Program-made: the position numbers and the translations under genes | Shown here: piece by piece, positions 1-60,585 of the stretch | How the letters are laid out: each line of letters starts with the position of its first letter | Position numbering within the stretch: the first letter of the stretch is position 1 | IMG/VR virus record: IMGVR_UViG_3300034110_000180 | Span: 1 to 60,585 of that record | Length of the DNA: 60,585 nucleotides | Direction: 5' to 3' (one strand) | Origin: a virus | Lineage: Duplodnaviria > Caudoviricetes | Notes under the pieces: generated by a model | Told to the model about the DNA's origin: nothing | Databases searched by the model: none | The model's input: the letters and a program-made list of their open reading frames with translations, nothing else

Positions 1-151
1 AAGTCGAAGACAAGTACCGGCCATGCATCATGCTGGATTCAAAGTACGCTTACTTTGTTGCTGACACGCTCGAGGCGGCGAAAGAACATGTCTTGGTAAT
101 GCTTGCCGCAAACAAACTGGAGGGCGCATGAGATGGGATAGCACATACAAA
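1..151. repeat. Terminal overlap, copy 1 (circular assembly junction)
   Basis: 1-151 matches 60435-60585 except G25 vs T60459; the overlap falls inside a gene pair. Confidence 0.95.
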
Positions 152-355
152 GGCATCAAGAACTACCTCAATTGGCACGACCTGCTGGATGACGAGGAGC
201 AACTGCTTGGCTACGTCAGGGAGAACACCGCCAACGGCGAGTTCATCGCCATGATCAACGAGGGTGGTATGCCCAATGAAAAGTTCGACAACCTCGAAGA
301 CGCCAAGGCTCACATCGTTGCGTACTACGTGACGCAGAAACTGGAGGACACATGA
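128..355 (+). CDS. Small early protein, family A (N-terminal W, FDNLEDAKAH motif), tail QKLEDT
   Basis: GGAGG SD and ATGA overlap with upstream gene; paralogous motif. Confidence 0.85.
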   Translation: MRWDSTYKGIKNYLNWHDLLDDEEQLLGYVRENTANGEFIAMINEGGMPNEKFDNLEDAKAHIVAYYVTQKLEDT

Positions 356-573
356 AAAAACTAACGTGGCGTGGGCAGGACTGCGTGGTGGTAAGCCCGA
401 TAGTAACTATGCGATGTCATGGTTGCTTGTTCGTCAACGCCGAGGACGATGAATGTCCGCACACCGACGAATCCGTTCCAATGAGCTGCGATTCAGATAA
501 CGACGTCATCTTCATCGAAGACACACCAGAGGCGCTGGCTGCTTATGCCGCGCAGAAACTGGAGGGCACATGA
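352..573 (+). CDS. Small Cys-rich early protein, family B (CxxCxF..C..C..IF), tail QKLEGT
   Basis: ATGA overlap, SD, four-Cys pattern shared with paralogs. Confidence 0.85.
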   Translation: MKKLTWRGQDCVVVSPIVTMRCHGCLFVNAEDDECPHTDESVPMSCDSDNDVIFIEDTPEALAAYAAQKLEGT

Positions 574-818
574 GAACCAAGATCAGGGTGGATAACAAGT
601 GGTACAGGCCAGTGCCTTGGCATGTCGATGGCGAATGTGACGGCTGCGTGTTCGATGGCAAAGATTGCATCAACGATTCGAGCAGCAAGTTCGCCGGCCT
701 ATGCGACGACGGCTGCGAGTTCTCCGGGATGATCTTCATCCGCAACACCAAAGAACACTTCGCTGAGTACGTGGCCAAGAAACTAGAAGGACCTGAGGAG
801 GACGACGATGAAGTTTGA
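570..818 (+). CDS. Small Cys-rich early protein, family B, KKLEG followed by acidic extension
   Basis: ATGA overlap, CDGCVF motif, MIFI..EYVAKKLEG. Confidence 0.85.
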   Translation: MRTKIRVDNKWYRPVPWHVDGECDGCVFDGKDCINDSSSKFAGLCDDGCEFSGMIFIRNTKEHFAEYVAKKLEGPEEDDDEV

Positions 819-1074
819 CTGGATGAACTGCGGCTCAGGGTACTACCGGTGTTCCACCACCAAGCCGGTGCAGATCAAGTCATTCACCCAAGGCCTATAC
901 AAGGTCCAAGACATGGGCTACGTCATGCCGAAAGATGGTCGGTACATGGCATGCGTATACGGAAGCGTCAACCCGACCATACCGGGCGAGTACTTCGACA
1001 ACATCGATGAGGCCAAGGCCTATGTCGAGGAGCATGCCCTTGCTGGCATAGCGATCAACAAATTAACGAGGTGA
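808..1074 (+). CDS. Small early protein, family A, tail AINKLTR
   Basis: GAGGAGG SD; FDNIDEAKAY motif. Confidence 0.85.
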   Translation: MKFDWMNCGSGYYRCSTTKPVQIKSFTQGLYKVQDMGYVMPKDGRYMACVYGSVNPTIPGEYFDNIDEAKAYVEEHALAGIAINKLTR

Positions 1075-1087
1075 CCGAGGAGAGATT

Positions 1088-1285
1088 ATGTACACGATTG
1101 AAGAAATGAAGGCTACCCAAGCAAACGCAGGCAAGCCCGGGTTCAATGAGTATGGCGTGCCACTTCACGCATGCAACGGCTACCGCCACGACGAACACTA
1201 CTGGGAACACATCCGAACAGTCGTGAAGAACCACTCCGCGCACTACTGGGCCTACATCCGAGCGATCAACAAGCTAACACGTTGA
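1088..1285 (+). CDS. Small early protein, tail AINKLTR
   Basis: GAGGAG SD; same 7-aa tail as upstream gene. Confidence 0.8.
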   Translation: MYTIEEMKATQANAGKPGFNEYGVPLHACNGYRHDEHYWEHIRTVVKNHSAHYWAYIRAINKLTR

Positions 1286-8732: not shown

Positions 8733-9416
8733 ATGGCAACCGTGTACGTTACCAAAGAACTCAAGGACCGCGTCCGCAACAACATCAACACCATGCGTGT
8801 GGCAGAAATCAACAGCGACCTGCCCGGGTATGACAGAGAGCACCTCATCAACGCCTCGCACATCTACCACCTCGGGTGCTGGGGCAAGGAGCACATGCAC
8901 CTGCTCAATGTCATCCCCAAAGACTGGCTGGCATGCAACGAATCCGTGAACACCCACGTGGCGGCCCCGCACACTGATGCCAACGGCAACAGCGGCGAAC
9001 TTGTGTTCAGCATCAAGTTCCGCAACAAGGACAGTTTCTACAACCGCCCATCGACTGACTACTGGAACCGCGTTAATTCAAGGGTTACGTTGGAAGAAGT
9101 GACTGCACTGCCAGAAGAGACACCGGGCCGCGCCGAGGTTCTTCGGCGGTACGAAGACGAGAAAGTTTTGATTGGCATCAACAGCCGCTGGGAGACAGTG
9201 CAGACCAACATCATGGAGTTCCTCGACAAGTGCAAGTCGCTCAACGAGGCAGTCAAGCTGTTCCCTACGATCACCATGTACCTGCACCAAGACGACATTG
9301 CTCGCCTCAATCGCAAGGTTGAGCGCACCGCACAGCGCAAAGCTATCGTGTTAGATGTTGACGTTGAGGGCATTACAGCAGCGGCCATCGCCGCCAAGCT
9401 GAGTGCGTCGCTGTGA
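8733..9416 (+). CDS. Hypothetical protein, possibly Nmad5-like
   Basis: AAGGA SD; C-terminal CKSLNEAVKLFP pattern. Confidence 0.6.
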   Translation: MATVYVTKELKDRVRNNINTMRVAEINSDLPGYDREHLINASHIYHLGCWGKEHMHLLNVIPKDWLACNESVNTHVAAPHTDANGNSGELVFSIKFRNKDSFYNRPSTDYWNRVNSRVTLEEVTALPEETPGRAEVLRRYEDEKVLIGINSRWETVQTNIMEFLDKCKSLNEAVKLFPTITMYLHQDDIARLNRKVERTAQRKAIVLDVDVEGITAAAIAAKLSASL

Positions 9417-9640
9417 GCCTTGCAGACCAGATAGTCGCGATGGAAGAAGAGCTCCAAAGAGCATTGGAAGATGCCCGCATGTACGAGCGGACGTGCAATA
9501 TTCTGGAAGACCAAAACGAAGACCTGTCCGATGAGCTAATAGACGCTTGTGACTTCATTGATTTCGTTGACAAGACCAACCCCGAGCTGCGTGTTGCGTA
9601 TAACGCAGCCAAAGCATTGGAAGGAAACAAAAATGGCTGA
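9413..9640 (+). CDS. Small acidic coiled-coil protein
   Basis: GTGA overlap; heptad pattern. Confidence 0.7.
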   Translation: MSLADQIVAMEEELQRALEDARMYERTCNILEDQNEDLSDELIDACDFIDFVDKTNPELRVAYNAAKALEGNKNG

Positions 9641-9824
9641 CAAGATCACCTACCCCACGATTCCCGTGGGTCACCCCGACTACAAGTGGACGTCAGGCGC
9701 TGACGTACAGGCTACATGGAGACGCTTCGGCTGGGTGCCGCCGTTCGGCAACAAGTTCGAGCCCATACCTCCTAAGGAGGTAGAGGTTGTGCAAGCCACA
9801 CGTAAGTATTGGAGAGTCAAATGA
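9633..9824 (+). CDS. Small phage protein (DVQATWRRFGWVPP motif)
   Basis: AAGGA SD; overlaps both neighbours. Confidence 0.7.
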   Translation: MADKITYPTIPVGHPDYKWTSGADVQATWRRFGWVPPFGNKFEPIPPKEVEVVQATRKYWRVK

Positions 9825-12835: not shown

Positions 12836-13143
12836 CTGTGAAGAAGACCAAACCCGTGAGCGCCGACGTGCTCAACCACCCGTTGTACCCCATATTCATT
12901 GCCGCCATCGAGCAAGCCATGTATGGCAAGGGCGAACGCCACGGCGGTGCGCATACACCGTTCATGGACCAGCCATGGGCCCACTACATCCGCATGCACG
13001 GCAGAGGATTTGCCACCGGCCAAGCCGCCAAAAAGCTGGAGGAAGCTGCAAGCACCCGTGATGGCGTGGCCTTCGAGACTGAGGTCTTCGGTGCGCTGGT
13101 GTACATCGGCATGTCCGTCCTCGCAGAGCGCGGTGAAATCTGA
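12832..13143 (+). CDS. Phage protein (GKGERHG..GQAAKKLEEA)
   Basis: ATGA overlap. Confidence 0.75.
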   Translation: MTVKKTKPVSADVLNHPLYPIFIAAIEQAMYGKGERHGGAHTPFMDQPWAHYIRMHGRGFATGQAAKKLEEAASTRDGVAFETEVFGALVYIGMSVLAERGEI

Positions 13144-13490
13144 TGTTCGAAAACATAATGCACGCCTTGATAGGCAACAGCCAGAACCCGCTTCTAAACG
13201 CCGCGAACGGTACGGCCAGCATGGGCTCCGCAATTGGTTCGTCGTACAACAGCCCCGGCACAACAGCCACGGCGGCTATCGCTCAGCAGATTCTGAAGAA
13301 GGAGTCGGCCCCATCGTCCAGAAAAATCTTCCATGGCACAGTGGAAGTCTTGCAGGTGGCCAACGGCTACATCGTCAACATCGGACGCAAAGAGGGCTAT
13401 GCGTACGACACGTACATAGCCGAGACAATTCCTGAGGTGAACGAGCGCATCGCCGCCGCCATCGTCGCATTCCAACTGGAGGGAACATGA
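13143..13490 (+). CDS. Hypothetical protein, tail AIVAFQLEGT
   Basis: TGATG coupling; VANGYIV motif shared with next gene. Confidence 0.75.
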   Translation: MFENIMHALIGNSQNPLLNAANGTASMGSAIGSSYNSPGTTATAAIAQQILKKESAPSSRKIFHGTVEVLQVANGYIVNIGRKEGYAYDTYIAETIPEVNERIAAAIVAFQLEGT

Positions 13491-58102: not shown

Positions 58103-58555
58103 ATGACACACATGACACACATGACACACATGACACCAGAGCGCATTGATGCCCTTTGGAAGCAGGCATTCGACAACACCGAGGATGGCGGGAAAACGTC
58201 ACACCGATTTGCCGCTTTGCTTTTTGCGGAGGCCGCAGCACCTACTGTGCATAAGTCAGTAGCTGAGACTGAAATAGATAGTCCCGCAGGGCATTGCGGG
58301 ACTATCTATTCAGAGGTATTCCTCCCTGTAGGAACAAAACTCTACACCACACCACCCGCAGCACCTGTGCCGCTGACGGATGACCAGATTTGGCGGCTTT
58401 GGTGGTCACGCCACGACGGGTGTTGTGGGCTTGAAGGAAAAAAGCTTGGGGAAATTCCCGTCACAAAAGAAGAGTTTGTTGCCATTGTGCGCTCGGTTTT
58501 ATCCTACTACGGCATCACAGAGAAAGGCATCAAGATCATGGACAAGATCGGATAA
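58103..58555 (+). CDS. Hypothetical protein with N-terminal (MTH)x3 repeat
   Basis: TAAGGAG SD; LYTTPPAAPVPLTDDQI motif. Confidence 0.75.
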   Translation: MTHMTHMTHMTPERIDALWKQAFDNTEDGGKTSHRFAALLFAEAAAPTVHKSVAETEIDSPAGHCGTIYSEVFLPVGTKLYTTPPAAPVPLTDDQIWRLWWSRHDGCCGLEGKKLGEIPVTKEEFVAIVRSVLSYYGITEKGIKIMDKIG

Positions 58556-58559
58556 CGCC

Positions 58560-58857
58560 ATGGCCGAACCAACCCCACTGGAGGCAGACTACTACCCACG
58601 CATCAAACACAACAAGCGCTGGTATCTACTGGTATCTACTGGTGCCTGAGGTCCTCATTCACGAGGGCTGTGCGTTCTACATACCGGATAGCGACGAGCA
58701 CTGCAAGCTCATTAACGAGAACGGCGGGACAACCGATGAACTGCCAATGTTCAAGCGGCATGACTGCGGGGACCACGGCACCATCTTTCTTGCACCATCC
58801 AAGTTTCCTGAGTACCGGGCCCATCTCGTGGCTAAGAAACTGGAAGGTAAGACATGA
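58560..58857 (+). pseudogene. Family B gene frameshifted by a 10-bp tandem duplication; tail KKLEGKT
   Basis: CTGGTATCTA x2 at 58619-58638; removing one copy gives a continuous 95-aa ORF. Confidence 0.7.
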
Positions 58858-59105
58858 ACACCGGCAAGGTTGAATGGCGGCTAAACAAGAGCTTGGACCA
58901 TAAATCGTTGGAGTACACAGACCTGTTCATCGACGATGTGTATCAGTCCATATGGCTGGAGCGCGACCGAAACTGCGGCACATGGCAATTCGTAGGGTAC
59001 AAACCTTCCGGGTCGTACCGTTCGCCGACCGAGGCCACCATGGAAGCGGCCAAGGAGCACGGCACCACATGGATGGTCATCAACAAACTGGAGGGTAAGA
59101 CGTGA
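58854..59105 (+). CDS. Small early protein, family A, tail NKLEGKT
   Basis: ATGA overlap; TMEAAKEH motif. Confidence 0.8.
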   Translation: MNTGKVEWRLNKSLDHKSLEYTDLFIDDVYQSIWLERDRNCGTWQFVGYKPSGSYRSPTEATMEAAKEHGTTWMVINKLEGKT

Positions 59106-59380
59106 AGCAGCACCCAAGATTCCCCGACCACATAGCGGTCAACCATCAGACACTGCCTAGCGCAGAAGAACGCGTTGCCCTGACAGGTGAAGCAGCTTGG
59201 CGTCATGGTGTATGCGTCGAGTGCCCTGAGAGATTGTGCGCCCGTTCAGAAGATGACACGCAGTATGCGCACTGCCTGCTGTCGTCACCAAATGACAACA
59301 AGTCCATGGGCGTATGGATGACGCAGACCACGTACGCCATATTCAAACTACACGATGGAAAAGTGAAGGCGCTCAAATGA
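59102..59380 (+). CDS. Small Cys-rich early protein, family B-like
   Basis: GTGA overlap; CVECPERLC..HC; YAIFKL. Confidence 0.75.
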   Translation: MKQHPRFPDHIAVNHQTLPSAEERVALTGEAAWRHGVCVECPERLCARSEDDTQYAHCLLSSPNDNKSMGVWMTQTTYAIFKLHDGKVKALK

Positions 59381-59502
59381 CCAAACACACCACAAGAGGC
59401 AGCATACCCTCGGTATGGCAGGACGATGGGTTCGGGACACTGCACCGCATCACATTCGCAGCACTCATTGCCCGCGTTGAGTCTGGGTGGAGAGAGTTGT
59501 GA
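59377..59502 (+). CDS. 41-aa protein
   Basis: ATGA and GTGA overlaps on both sides. Confidence 0.6.
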   Translation: MTKHTTRGSIPSVWQDDGFGTLHRITFAALIARVESGWREL

Positions 59503-59729
59503 AGCTCGGCCACTACCAGAAGCTGCGGCAACACCCCGACGACCCCAACGTGTGGGAAATAACCACCGATACGCTTAGAAAGATGGGCCACATCGGGTCA
59601 GTGTGCCGTGGATGCCCTTACCTGCCGAACCTCGAATGTCCAATTCTGGGAGACGAAAGGTCTTGTCGTTCAGGCACCGTGTGGTACGGCGAACACATCT
59701 TGATTGCAAACAAACTGGAGGGAGCATGA
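59499..59729 (+). CDS. Small Cys-rich early protein, family B-like, tail NKLEGA
   Basis: GGAG SD, GTG start; CRGC..C..C. Confidence 0.75.
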   Translation: MKLGHYQKLRQHPDDPNVWEITTDTLRKMGHIGSVCRGCPYLPNLECPILGDERSCRSGTVWYGEHILIANKLEGA

Positions 59730-59998
59730 CCATACAAAAGCAACCATTCCTGTTGGCTGACAACCTCGTTGTTGTGGCCACGCAGATGAAATCAGCAAGC
59801 GTCCTACCCGGCGGAAACAGGAACCCAGTCGCTCCAAGTCTATTCATCATGCTTGGGGGTACTGAGCCTGATCATGGAGTTCAAGCCATACCCCCATGCA
59901 GTATGTATGTGTACGGGGAGAAAGCCATCGAGGAACTGCAAGCAGCGTGTGCCTTCGCACTACTGCCGAAGGTCGTTAACAAACTGGAGGGAGCATGA
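59726..59998 (+). CDS. Small early protein, tail NKLEGA
   Basis: GGAGG SD, ATGA overlap. Confidence 0.75.
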   Translation: MTIQKQPFLLADNLVVVATQMKSASVLPGGNRNPVAPSLFIMLGGTEPDHGVQAIPPCSMYVYGEKAIEELQAACAFALLPKVVNKLEGA

Positions 59999-60090
59999 TC
60001 TACTGGAAAATCTGTCTGGCGTGGCTGGTTGTCTACGCCGTGGGCACTGCTGTCCTGCTCATGGATTTGCTTTGGTGGAGGCCGGGATGA
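59995..60090 (+). CDS. 31-aa membrane peptide (..LLMDLLWWRPG)
   Basis: ATGA overlaps at both ends; hydrophobic. Confidence 0.7.
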   Translation: MIYWKICLAWLVVYAVGTAVLLMDLLWWRPG

Positions 60091-60359
60091 TTGGCCGAGT
60101 CATACATGGCAAGCGCTACTGGATGGTGCCGTCCATACGGGACTCAAAGATAGGTGGTGGCTGCGACCACTGCGTGTTCGATGACCGTGATACAAACGGG
60201 TGTACGTTGATTGACGATGCACCGGAAGACGACAAACGCTACGGAGACACGCACCGTACTGGGTGCAATCCACCAGAAAGCAACGACGACTTCATATTCA
60301 TCAAGCGCACGAAGGCGGCCATGGCCGAGTACATCGCCAAGAAACTGGAGGGCACATGA
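60087..60359 (+). CDS. Small Cys-rich early protein, family B, tail KKLEGT
   Basis: CDHCVF..C..C..FIFI..EYIAKKLEGT. Confidence 0.8.
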   Translation: MIGRVIHGKRYWMVPSIRDSKIGGGCDHCVFDDRDTNGCTLIDDAPEDDKRYGDTHRTGCNPPESNDDFIFIKRTKAAMAEYIAKKLEGT

Positions 60360-60565
60360 GATGGGTACCACTTGAAAGCGGCACAAGCTGGTGGCTGGAG
60401 AACGCCGAAGGCATCTCACAGGCCTACGTCGTAAAAGTCGAAGACAAGTACCGGCCATTCATCATGCTGGATTCAAAGTACGCTTACTTTGTTGCTGACA
60501 CGCTCGAGGCGGCGAAAGAACATGTCTTGGTAATGCTTGCCGCAAACAAACTGGAGGGCGCATGA
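60356..60565 (+). CDS. Small early protein, family A, tail NKLEGA
   Basis: ATGA overlap; TLEAAKEH motif. Confidence 0.8.
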   Translation: MRWVPLESGTSWWLENAEGISQAYVVKVEDKYRPFIMLDSKYAYFVADTLEAAKEHVLVMLAANKLEGA

Positions 60566-60585
60566 GATGGGATAGCACATACAAA
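60435..60585. repeat. Terminal overlap, copy 2
   Basis: Matches 1-151 with one mismatch. Confidence 0.95.

Follow-up and report, generated by a model that had tools for sequence, protein, structure and literature searches.

Short C-terminal peptides common to different proteins are known from recognition tags such as the ssrA-type degrons, which are unstructured and separable from the rest of the protein. Gene ends are also shaped by translational coupling, in which consecutive genes overlap at ATGA or GTGA. A third relevant system is that of the promoter-early stem-loop (PeSL) units of T4-type phages, intergenic promoter and stem-loop terminator units that are associated with cassette shuffling (Arbiol et al. 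2010, PMC2839356). We compare these systems with an array of small genes in IMG/VR virus record IMGVR_UViG_3300034110_000180 (Duplodnaviria; Caudoviricetes), a stretch of 60,585 nucleotides that was analysed whole and is called the window herein. The phage genome in the window closes into a circle of ~60,434 bp, positions 1–151 repeating 60435–60585 with one mismatch. The array consists of 14 tightly packed plus-strand open reading frames (ORFs) at 58560–60565 that continue across the join at 128–1285; 11 of them, p1 to p11, end in a shared tail of a hydrophobic helix followed by [N/K/Q]-K-L and then E-G, E-D or T-R, and three (59102–59380, 59377–59502 and 59995–60090) do not.

An earlier sequence-only reading had interpreted this arrangement as one constant tag, carried on variable heads, that docks on one partner. 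We find instead that the helix belongs to each protein family and that the E-G follows the start of the downstream gene. The tail is probably a composite of family-specific helices, a coupling signal read as L-E-G and an additional fixation of junction bases, and not a separable module. As in ordinary translational coupling, the genes form a chain of RTGA overlaps with the Shine-Dalgarno (SD) sequence inside the upstream ORF, and the SD-encoded residues vanish where no gene follows. Unlike ordinary coupling, one reading of the SD sequence, L-E-G, recurs on many helix-ended small genes and mimics a protein motif, and the flanking AAA and CTG are fixed beyond the needs of SD pairing. The likeness to ssrA-type tags lies in a short C-terminal peptide common to different proteins; the difference is that the peptide is here the end of a predicted folded helix plus an SD-encoded dipeptide, and varies with gene context. 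The features of the array are as follows, where A and B denote two superfamilies of small proteins and F with a number denotes a sequence family, all described below.

58560–58649, plus strand: N-terminal piece of p1, 29 aa, superfamily B; matches the N-termini of intact 95–113 aa orthologues
58620–58639, no strand assigned: two tandem copies of a 10-base unit, read from the sequence; accounts for the +1 offset that splits p1
58642–58857, plus strand: C-terminal piece of p1, superfamily B (F19); tail HLVAKKLEGKT; ATGA overlap with p2
58854–59105, plus strand: p2, superfamily A (F46); tail WMVINKLEGKT; GTGA overlap with the next gene
59102–59380, plus strand: array gene without the tail; ends KVKALK; one orthologue, in locus L042
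59377–59502, plus strand: small array gene; ends ESGWREL, the SD sequence TGGAGA in another frame giving W-R; F12, 12 unique members
59499–59729, plus strand: p3, Cys-rich, F47, weakly linked to superfamily B; tail ILIANKLEGA
59726–59998, plus strand: p4, a family of its own; tail KVVNKLEGA; the same 21-base junction on both flanks
59995–60090, plus strand: hydrophobic mini-protein of 31 aa; ends LWWRPG, with W-R from TGGAGG; F4
60087–60359, plus strand: p5, superfamily B (F8, four Cys); tail YIAKKLEGT
60356–60565, plus strand: p6, superfamily A (F48); tail MLAANKLEGA; gene end repeated at 3–131
128–355, plus strand: p7, superfamily A (F0); tail YYVTQKLEDT
352–573, plus strand: p8, superfamily B (F8); tail YAAQKLEGT
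570–818, plus strand: p9, superfamily B (F8); tail YVAKKLEG followed by PEEDDDEV
808–1074, plus strand: p10, superfamily A (F0, of the 'last gene of the array' type); tail IAINKLTR
1088–1285, plus strand: p11, an orphan with no family member among the loci; tail RAINKLTR

The tail pattern is real and far above chance. All 11 tails were found where the earlier reading had placed them, and the codons that it quoted are correct (AAA CTA GAA GGA in p9, GAA GGT in p1, and AAA TTA ACG AGG versus AAG CTA ACA CGT in the NKLTR pair). When stop-to-stop frames of at least 40 aa were searched for [NKQ]KL followed by EG, ED or TR within the last 14 residues, the 440 plus-strand frames gave 11 distinct places (12 rows, with one place printed twice through the circular extension) and the 435 minus-strand frames gave none. 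All 11 places sit in the array, and none elsewhere in the genome. At the nucleotide level, the 10-mer AAACTGGAGG has eight matches at seven places (114 and 60548 coincide in the terminal overlap and count once); every one lies in the array and the minus strand has none, against an expectation of 0.17 ± 0.40 from 100 shuffles, none of which reached eight. Far from the array, the gene at 9413–9640 (F13) ends AAKALEGNKNG and that at 13143–13490 (F34) ends AFQLEGT, with the SD sequence of the next gene in those codons.

Eleven consecutive gene junctions, from 58854 to 570, are 4-base RTGA overlaps with GGAGG 4–7 nt ahead of the start codon, the exceptions in the array being one 11-base overlap (808–818) and one 13-base gap (1075–1087). 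CTGGAGG is found at seven of the tail junctions in the window, inside the upstream ORF, where CTG GAG GGN NNA TGA reads L-E-G-x-stop in the upstream frame. Since each upstream gene carries the SD sequence of its successor in its final codons, the E-G(x) is a ribosome-binding site seen as protein.

Relatives were drawn from IMG/VR. A scan for the junction motif yielded 30 loci, of which translation identified 12 as true relatives; the remaining 18 proved unrelated and enter no count. An ATPase scan yielded 49 loci of one clade, with ATPase identities of 52–94%. Small ORFs called with a simple codon-usage gene caller (966, of which 685 are unique) were clustered into 203 families. Loci L001–L030, which duplicate contigs of L031–L079, were excluded from the reference sets of the families, from the tests on junctions and breakpoints and from alignments A2–A4; they were kept in the clustering pool, and a few L005 and L026 rows stand in the tail table.

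The tail table holds 136 tails from 13 families. We classed 86 as coupled, the next start lying 5–16 nt past the codon after Leu, and 50 as free, although counts for the free class are approximate because it includes misclassified rows with a start nearby (p7 of the window, five of F21, one of F25 and three of F34). Among the coupled tails the first residue after Leu is E in 77 of 86 and the first two are EG in 51, with CTG as the Leu codon in 63 and GAG as the Glu codon in 68. Genes that are last in line and truly uncoupled follow the Leu with TR, NV, TM, SH, SR, NQ, ST or H[VIA]DV, and in p10-type genes the ratio of nonsynonymous to synonymous polymorphism (pN/pS) is 0.88 at both the +1 and the +2 position after Leu. 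The suggestion that LEG plus stop is partly explained by the GGAGG and ATGA of the next gene is thus borne out. The loss of E-G where no gene follows also argues against the alternative, which we regard as very unlikely, that helix and KLEG form a constant docking, localisation or degradation tag for one phage or host partner.

The peptide changes with the position and frame of the SD sequence. Orthologues in F25 alternate between ...VRLSI, with the SD sequence in GTG AGG, and ...IRLEGAI, with it in CTG GAG GGT, and for the distant homologue of B found in L085 the end is ARRLK and the SD sequence lies in AGG AGA. When SD frame and peptide were tabulated for 36 families, GGAG in frame 2 gave L-E in about 11 families and E-E in about 8, frame 1 gave W-R (F4, F5, F10 and F12) and frame 0 gave G-G (two B8 genes); other ATGA junctions in the genome encode PEELT, FEEKT, TRRKL and YWRVK. 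For a docking tag this is awkward, as the same junction in other frames makes recurring W-R tails that are hardly a tag, and the superfamily A members encoded after the ATPase gene end ITLEQ, VRLSI, VRLDP or VLLNQ. The W-R-x-x tail (TGG AGR) recurs on several unrelated small genes of the window, at 59995–60090, 59377–59502 and 9633–9824.

The Leu behaves differently from the E-G. Its column has a pN/pS of 0.00–0.16 in all six groups, with a pS there of 0.21–0.92 and six Leu codons in use. Uncoupled tails encode it as CTA, TTA or CTC in 30 of 50 (an approximate count, as above), CTA and TTA making up 2% and 1% of Leu codons genome-wide, and this codon choice appears to be the footprint of an escape from CTG by synonymous changes only. 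The Lys is conserved in p7-type (pN/pS 0.0) and p1-type (0.09) genes and not in B8 (0.98) or F13 (1.12), while the helix (positions −16 to −2) has a lower pN/pS than the body in every group (0.19–0.64 versus 0.40–0.71). These ratios indicate purifying selection on the protein at Leu and, in some families, at K/R. The proposal of selection on the peptide, beyond the SD and ATGA bases, is accordingly upheld for Leu, and the LEG of three rows that serve no SD sequence (below) speaks for it too; it fails for the EG of the other tails, whose conservation follows those bases. A constrained helix in every tested family and a nearly invariant Leu are also what a docking tag would show; the variable Lys of B8 and F13 is not.

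The two NKLTR tails, which differ synonymously, had been offered as a sign of peptide selection, and have another explanation. Orthologues of the p10 type vary synonymously at K, L, T and R, and the last codons of p11 and the DNA behind them match p10-type 3' ends of relatives, the p11 tail codons being as in L038. Homology to relatives resumes at 1266 (L034, L035 and L044) or 1268 (L037, L038 and L039), and matches to p10 stop at 1040–1067. Since the end of p11 is homologous to the p10-type 3' end of relatives, the two tails are, as judged from these alignments, copies by descent from diverged lineages and not convergence.

The helix that precedes the Leu, amphipathic in superfamilies A and B alike, is predicted in A to be part of a fold. 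An AlphaFold2 (AF2) model of p7 built from a 44-row alignment has a predicted local distance difference test (pLDDT) score of 89.8 and a predicted template modelling (pTM) score of 0.79, with strands at residues 2–8, 14–20, 26–33, 38–43 and 51–53 and a helix at 56–72 that ends exactly at the invariant L72; residues 73–75 are non-helical. The model thus shows superfamily A as a compact predicted single domain, in which the C-terminal helix would belong to the fold together with a five-stranded sheet. The order in superfamily B is four Cys, an IFI strand and then the helix, and the AF2 model of p5, at a pLDDT of 60.8, places the helix at residues 76–87. A tag is hard to reconcile with an A helix that is one of six secondary-structure elements in a confidently predicted single domain, although the helix is the best-conserved part of both superfamilies and a conserved exposed face of it could be a binding site. 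No partner is known and no candidate emerged; a predicted complex of p8 (alignment A4) with p7 (alignment A2) scored 0.01 against a mark of 0.32, which speaks neither for nor against binding.

Structural comparison of the A model found no match at E ≤ 1e-3 with Foldseek in PDB and BFVD. The alignments in PDB included those to chain B of 2ffg, Bacillus subtilis YkuJ (Foldseek probability 0.99, query template modelling score (TMq) 0.57, root-mean-square deviation (rmsd) 2.2; VIA Z 5.8, rmsd 3.3, 68 aligned residues), and to 6d7k_H, MmoD (VIA Z 6.1, rmsd 2.8, 63 aligned), and those in BFVD were to uncharacterised phage proteins (TMq up to 0.73). YkuJ and MmoD align with the A model over 54–68 residues, helix included; they have no sequence relation to superfamily A (profile against PDB, best E 0.82), and a Z below 8 may mean a common arrangement only. 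As these structural matches are weak, no function can be transferred from YkuJ, MmoD or the phage proteins to superfamily A.

The heads had been described as belonging to at least three unrelated types. Profile-profile comparison with hhalign shows that they are not a free assortment: nine of the 11 proteins fall into two superfamilies, with a weak link for p3, and the orphans p4 and p11 are unlinked to either. Superfamily A comprises p7 and p10 (F0), p2 (F46), p6 (F48) and the small genes after the ATPase gene (F3, F25 and F41), aligned over 23–48 columns at probabilities of 88–95% (F0–F48 95%, F46–F48 94%, F3–F25 92.5%, F0–F46 89%, F0–F3 88%). Superfamily B comprises p5, p8 and p9 (F8), p1 (F19), F21 and perhaps p3 (F47); F8 aligns with F19 at 96% over 82 columns, with F21 at 63% and with F47 at 15% over a span of 72 columns. 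Alignments between A and B cover only the last 8–13 columns, at 2.4–49%.

The B helix is conserved far more widely than the array. A B profile searched against 1.84 billion representatives found 245 clusters (at 50% identity) with E ≤ 1e-3, and 142 of the best 150 of these are at most 125 aa long. An aromatic residue followed by x4-[L/M] lies in the last 22 residues of 111 of the 142 small homologues; within those 111, a K or R stands before the L/M in 100, and 98 have L at that position. EG follows in only 24 and E plus another residue in roughly half. On these sequences, ...EA-x-A-x-Y-[VI]-A-x-[K/R]-L is the hallmark of superfamily B far beyond this clade. That the helix is the most conserved part of B across the 245 clusters, and that x-L-E-G occurs on at least six unlinked families, would again be expected of a docking tag. 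A related idea is that the helix (hydrophobic-x-x-[K/R]-L) of A, B and the tail-sharing orphans is a common interaction surface for one host or phage hub. We hold this to be improbable; if true, many small early proteins would compete for, or be delivered to, one hub, the L-E-G frame would be fixed to preserve the epitope on cassette exchange, and the array would amount to a library in which heads are shuffled on one adaptor helix.

We also considered whether the tails spread by copying at the DNA level. The junction of ~18–24 bases would then be a recombination joint at which cassettes are exchanged, with the last 4–7 codons copied onto the upstream gene; this is compatible with the composite reading, and we judge it possible but rather unlikely. 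Content and order certainly vary, as the relatives listed have between 0 and 11 tail genes in differing sets and orders, with p6–p7 in the window and p7–p6 in L035 and L042. The p6 cassette is present in one and absent from the other of L040 and L042, whose flanking block is 96.9% identical; the 15-base repeat CTGGAGGGCACATGA lies on both sides of this cassette, and the homology block begins 19 nt before the p6 stop. Several local patterns look like copying. Besides the identical 21-base junctions around p4, three successive junctions in L035 share a variant found in no other genome (G-K-A-I; GG[GT]AAAGCCATATGA), the p2 junction equals the p1 junction of its own genome in three of three genomes (with one mismatch in the window), p8 of the window has CAG AAA like its neighbour p7 where p8 orthologues have AAG AAA or CGT AGA, and p11 carries its p10-type 3' end.

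Comparisons over all the genomes gave weak or negative results. Adjacent non-homologous tail genes had junctions within one mismatch in 12 of 20 pairs versus 59 of 123 cross-genome pairs, and identical junctions in 5 of 20 versus 28 of 123, so that systematic homogenisation of adjacent junctions failed the global test; weak support came from the two codons before Leu (mean mismatch 1.65 versus 1.90, one-sided Wilcoxon p 0.034, on non-independent data). The 11 homologues of p4 (identity 65–94%) all end [NQ]KLEG plus one or two variable residues, and as they already carry the tail elsewhere it was not grafted at insertion here. Of the 72 ends of blocks of at least 90% identity, 46 are no more than 25 nt away from a gene end, where the null gives 10.9 ± 3.1, and the mosaicism is gene by gene, as in many phages. 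LEG-type ends account for 7 of those 46 breakpoints versus 22 of 136 gene ends; this is no excess, and gives no support for LEG junctions as recombination hotspots relative to other gene ends.

The PeSL cassettes of T4-type phages, which Comeau et al. reportedly treated in 2014 (PMC4122927), offer the nearest parallel for such exchange. Like them, the array combines small non-essential ORFs of unknown function with a short repeat at gene boundaries and a content and order that differ between close relatives. The repeat differs in being 18–24 bases of coding sequence plus SD sequence and RTGA, with, as read, no intergenic space, promoter or terminator, and in the LEG junctions showing no excess of breakpoints over other gene ends among the 72 block ends compared.

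Beyond the coupling signal, the junction bases are under a further constraint. In coupled tails the Lys codon is AAA in 40 cases and AAG in 6, AAA making up 28% genome-wide. Possible causes of such a constraint are an A-rich enhancer, copying between junctions and an RNA operator. Operators of the last kind are known from T4 RegA and RegB, and by analogy AAACTGGAGG could be the site at which a phage translational repressor or endoribonuclease shuts off the early array genes jointly. The seven copies of the 10-mer on the coding strand of the array alone, the AAA:AAG bias, and intergenic SD sequences of the same genome that read AAGGAG or CAGGAG instead would all suit an operator. No candidate regulator was identified, however, the AAACTG part of AAACTGGAGG is a K-L codon pair under protein-level selection, orthologues tolerate AAG (the six coupled cases) and AGA or AGG at the Lys position, and an A-rich tract before the SD sequence is a general translation enhancer. 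We therefore rate the operator as most improbable. On the composite reading, the extra constraint could come from an A-rich enhancer before the SD sequence, from copying between neighbouring junctions, or from both.

Several observations weigh against the composite reading. At least three rows, drawn from two lineages, have an LEG that serves no SD sequence: p9 (CTA GAA GGA, 22 nt from the start), its orthologue at L035 4586–4831 (CTC GAA GGT) and the last array gene of L074, 5601–5843 (TTA GAA GGC). In p9 the KLEG (AAA CTA GAA GGA) is internal, and the real SD sequence of p10, GAGGAGG, sits in the PEEDDDEV codons. Given the synonymous changes in these three rows, E-G is not only an SD shadow there, and its retention is a point in favour of a docking tag. 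Superfamilies A and B and at least four more families (F32, F34, F13 and p4) put K/Q-L directly before the SD sequence, a convergence that would be notable if independent. The seven copies of AAACTGGAGG and the AAA bias show a conservation that exceeds both pairing with 16S rRNA and protein selection. Burial of the A helix is a deduction from pTM and secondary structure, and the B model, at a pLDDT of 60.8, is too poor to show how its helix packs. Finally, misclassification by the gene caller visibly makes the free-class counts approximate, and the sequences are phylogenetically related, so that counts are not independent events.

Taking both sides together, we favour the composite reading, under which the tail would serve as the end of a structural helix onto which a translational-coupling signal has been overprinted. 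In the helix the Leu would be the final buried position, and CTG would simply be the codon for Leu whose third base opens GGAG. Fusion of neighbouring genes by a programmed frameshift or by read-through was dropped as a candidate, as no slippery heptamer was found at the junctions when the sequence was read by eye.

Individual genes of the array show further traits. The N-terminal piece of p1 is out of frame by +1 relative to 58642–58857, and intact orthologues in L031, L035, L038, L040, L042 and L045 read straight through the split point; the split could be an inactivating mutation, population heterogeneity or an assembly error. The F4 mini-protein family has 23 unique sequences across the clade. 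An 82-aa ESGWREL-type gene of L040 (5011–5259) shares its first five residues, MNGGK, with p2 of L042 (1223–1474), and the block of at least 90% identity common to L040 and L042 stops 11 nt past the p1 stop; this resembles a joint left by deletion or recombination a short way into the following gene. At the closure point, the mismatch in the terminal overlap (25 G versus 60459 T) changes one p6 residue between Cys and Phe, and suggests a mixed population or a read error.

The genome has a guanine plus cytosine content of 56.7%. Its plus strand carries early and replication genes from ~55.4 kb across the join to ~23.7 kb and its minus strand the large virion genes, and recognisable genes include a family A DNA polymerase, an SNF2-type helicase, a DUF927 protein and an SU10-like portal; a MoxR-like ATPase gene lies directly after the array. 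Between the array and the ATPase gene, at 1283–1330, is a conserved non-coding stretch, TGACGTGTG.C.GTGTAAG..., also present in L038, L039, L040 and L045, and GTGTGTATA-like words recur downstream of other early genes in relatives; both may be phage promoter or terminator signals. At 58103–58132 a 150-aa gene opens with three M-T-H units, a 9-base tandem repeat at its 5' end whose overlapping frames read H-T-H-T.

The nearest named phages are Rhizobium phages by portal (36% identity), and by ATPase identity is below 35%. Megablast of the array against GenBank phages gave no nucleotide match, and neither p5 nor P0072, a distant B homologue, had a tblastn match in that set. With no close match among named phages, there is no cultured relative usable for comparison. 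When 10 of the 11 proteins (all but p11) were searched, Pfam-A gave best E values of 0.13–0.16, below the cut-offs, and PHROGs gave no family of known function, the only matches being phrog_33085, of unknown function, for p8 (E 4.2e-05) and a WhiB-like match for p3 (E 0.011). Profiles of A and B against PDB sequences reached meaningless best E values of 0.71–0.82, p5 in the ESM Atlas matched solely viral clusters of 'hypothetical protein', and superfamily B lacks both a Pfam family and a solved relative and matches none of 50,697 GenBank phage records. Superfamilies A and B are new to annotation.

These comparisons show the array to be a hyperplastic block of small early genes in an uncultured clade of ~60-kb phages, made up mainly of two expanded superfamilies. 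Its tail is a worked example of how an in-gene ribosome-binding site next to a terminal helix imitates a conserved protein motif, and annotation pipelines and motif hunters should look at the reading frame and at where the downstream gene starts before naming a C-terminal 'tag'. The analysis also defines two unannotated small-protein superfamilies from an abundant uncultured phage clade, both of them candidate host-takeover or anti-defence proteins, and the array, a mosaic that changes gene by gene and breaks at gene ends, is relevant to the exchange of small accessory genes among phages.

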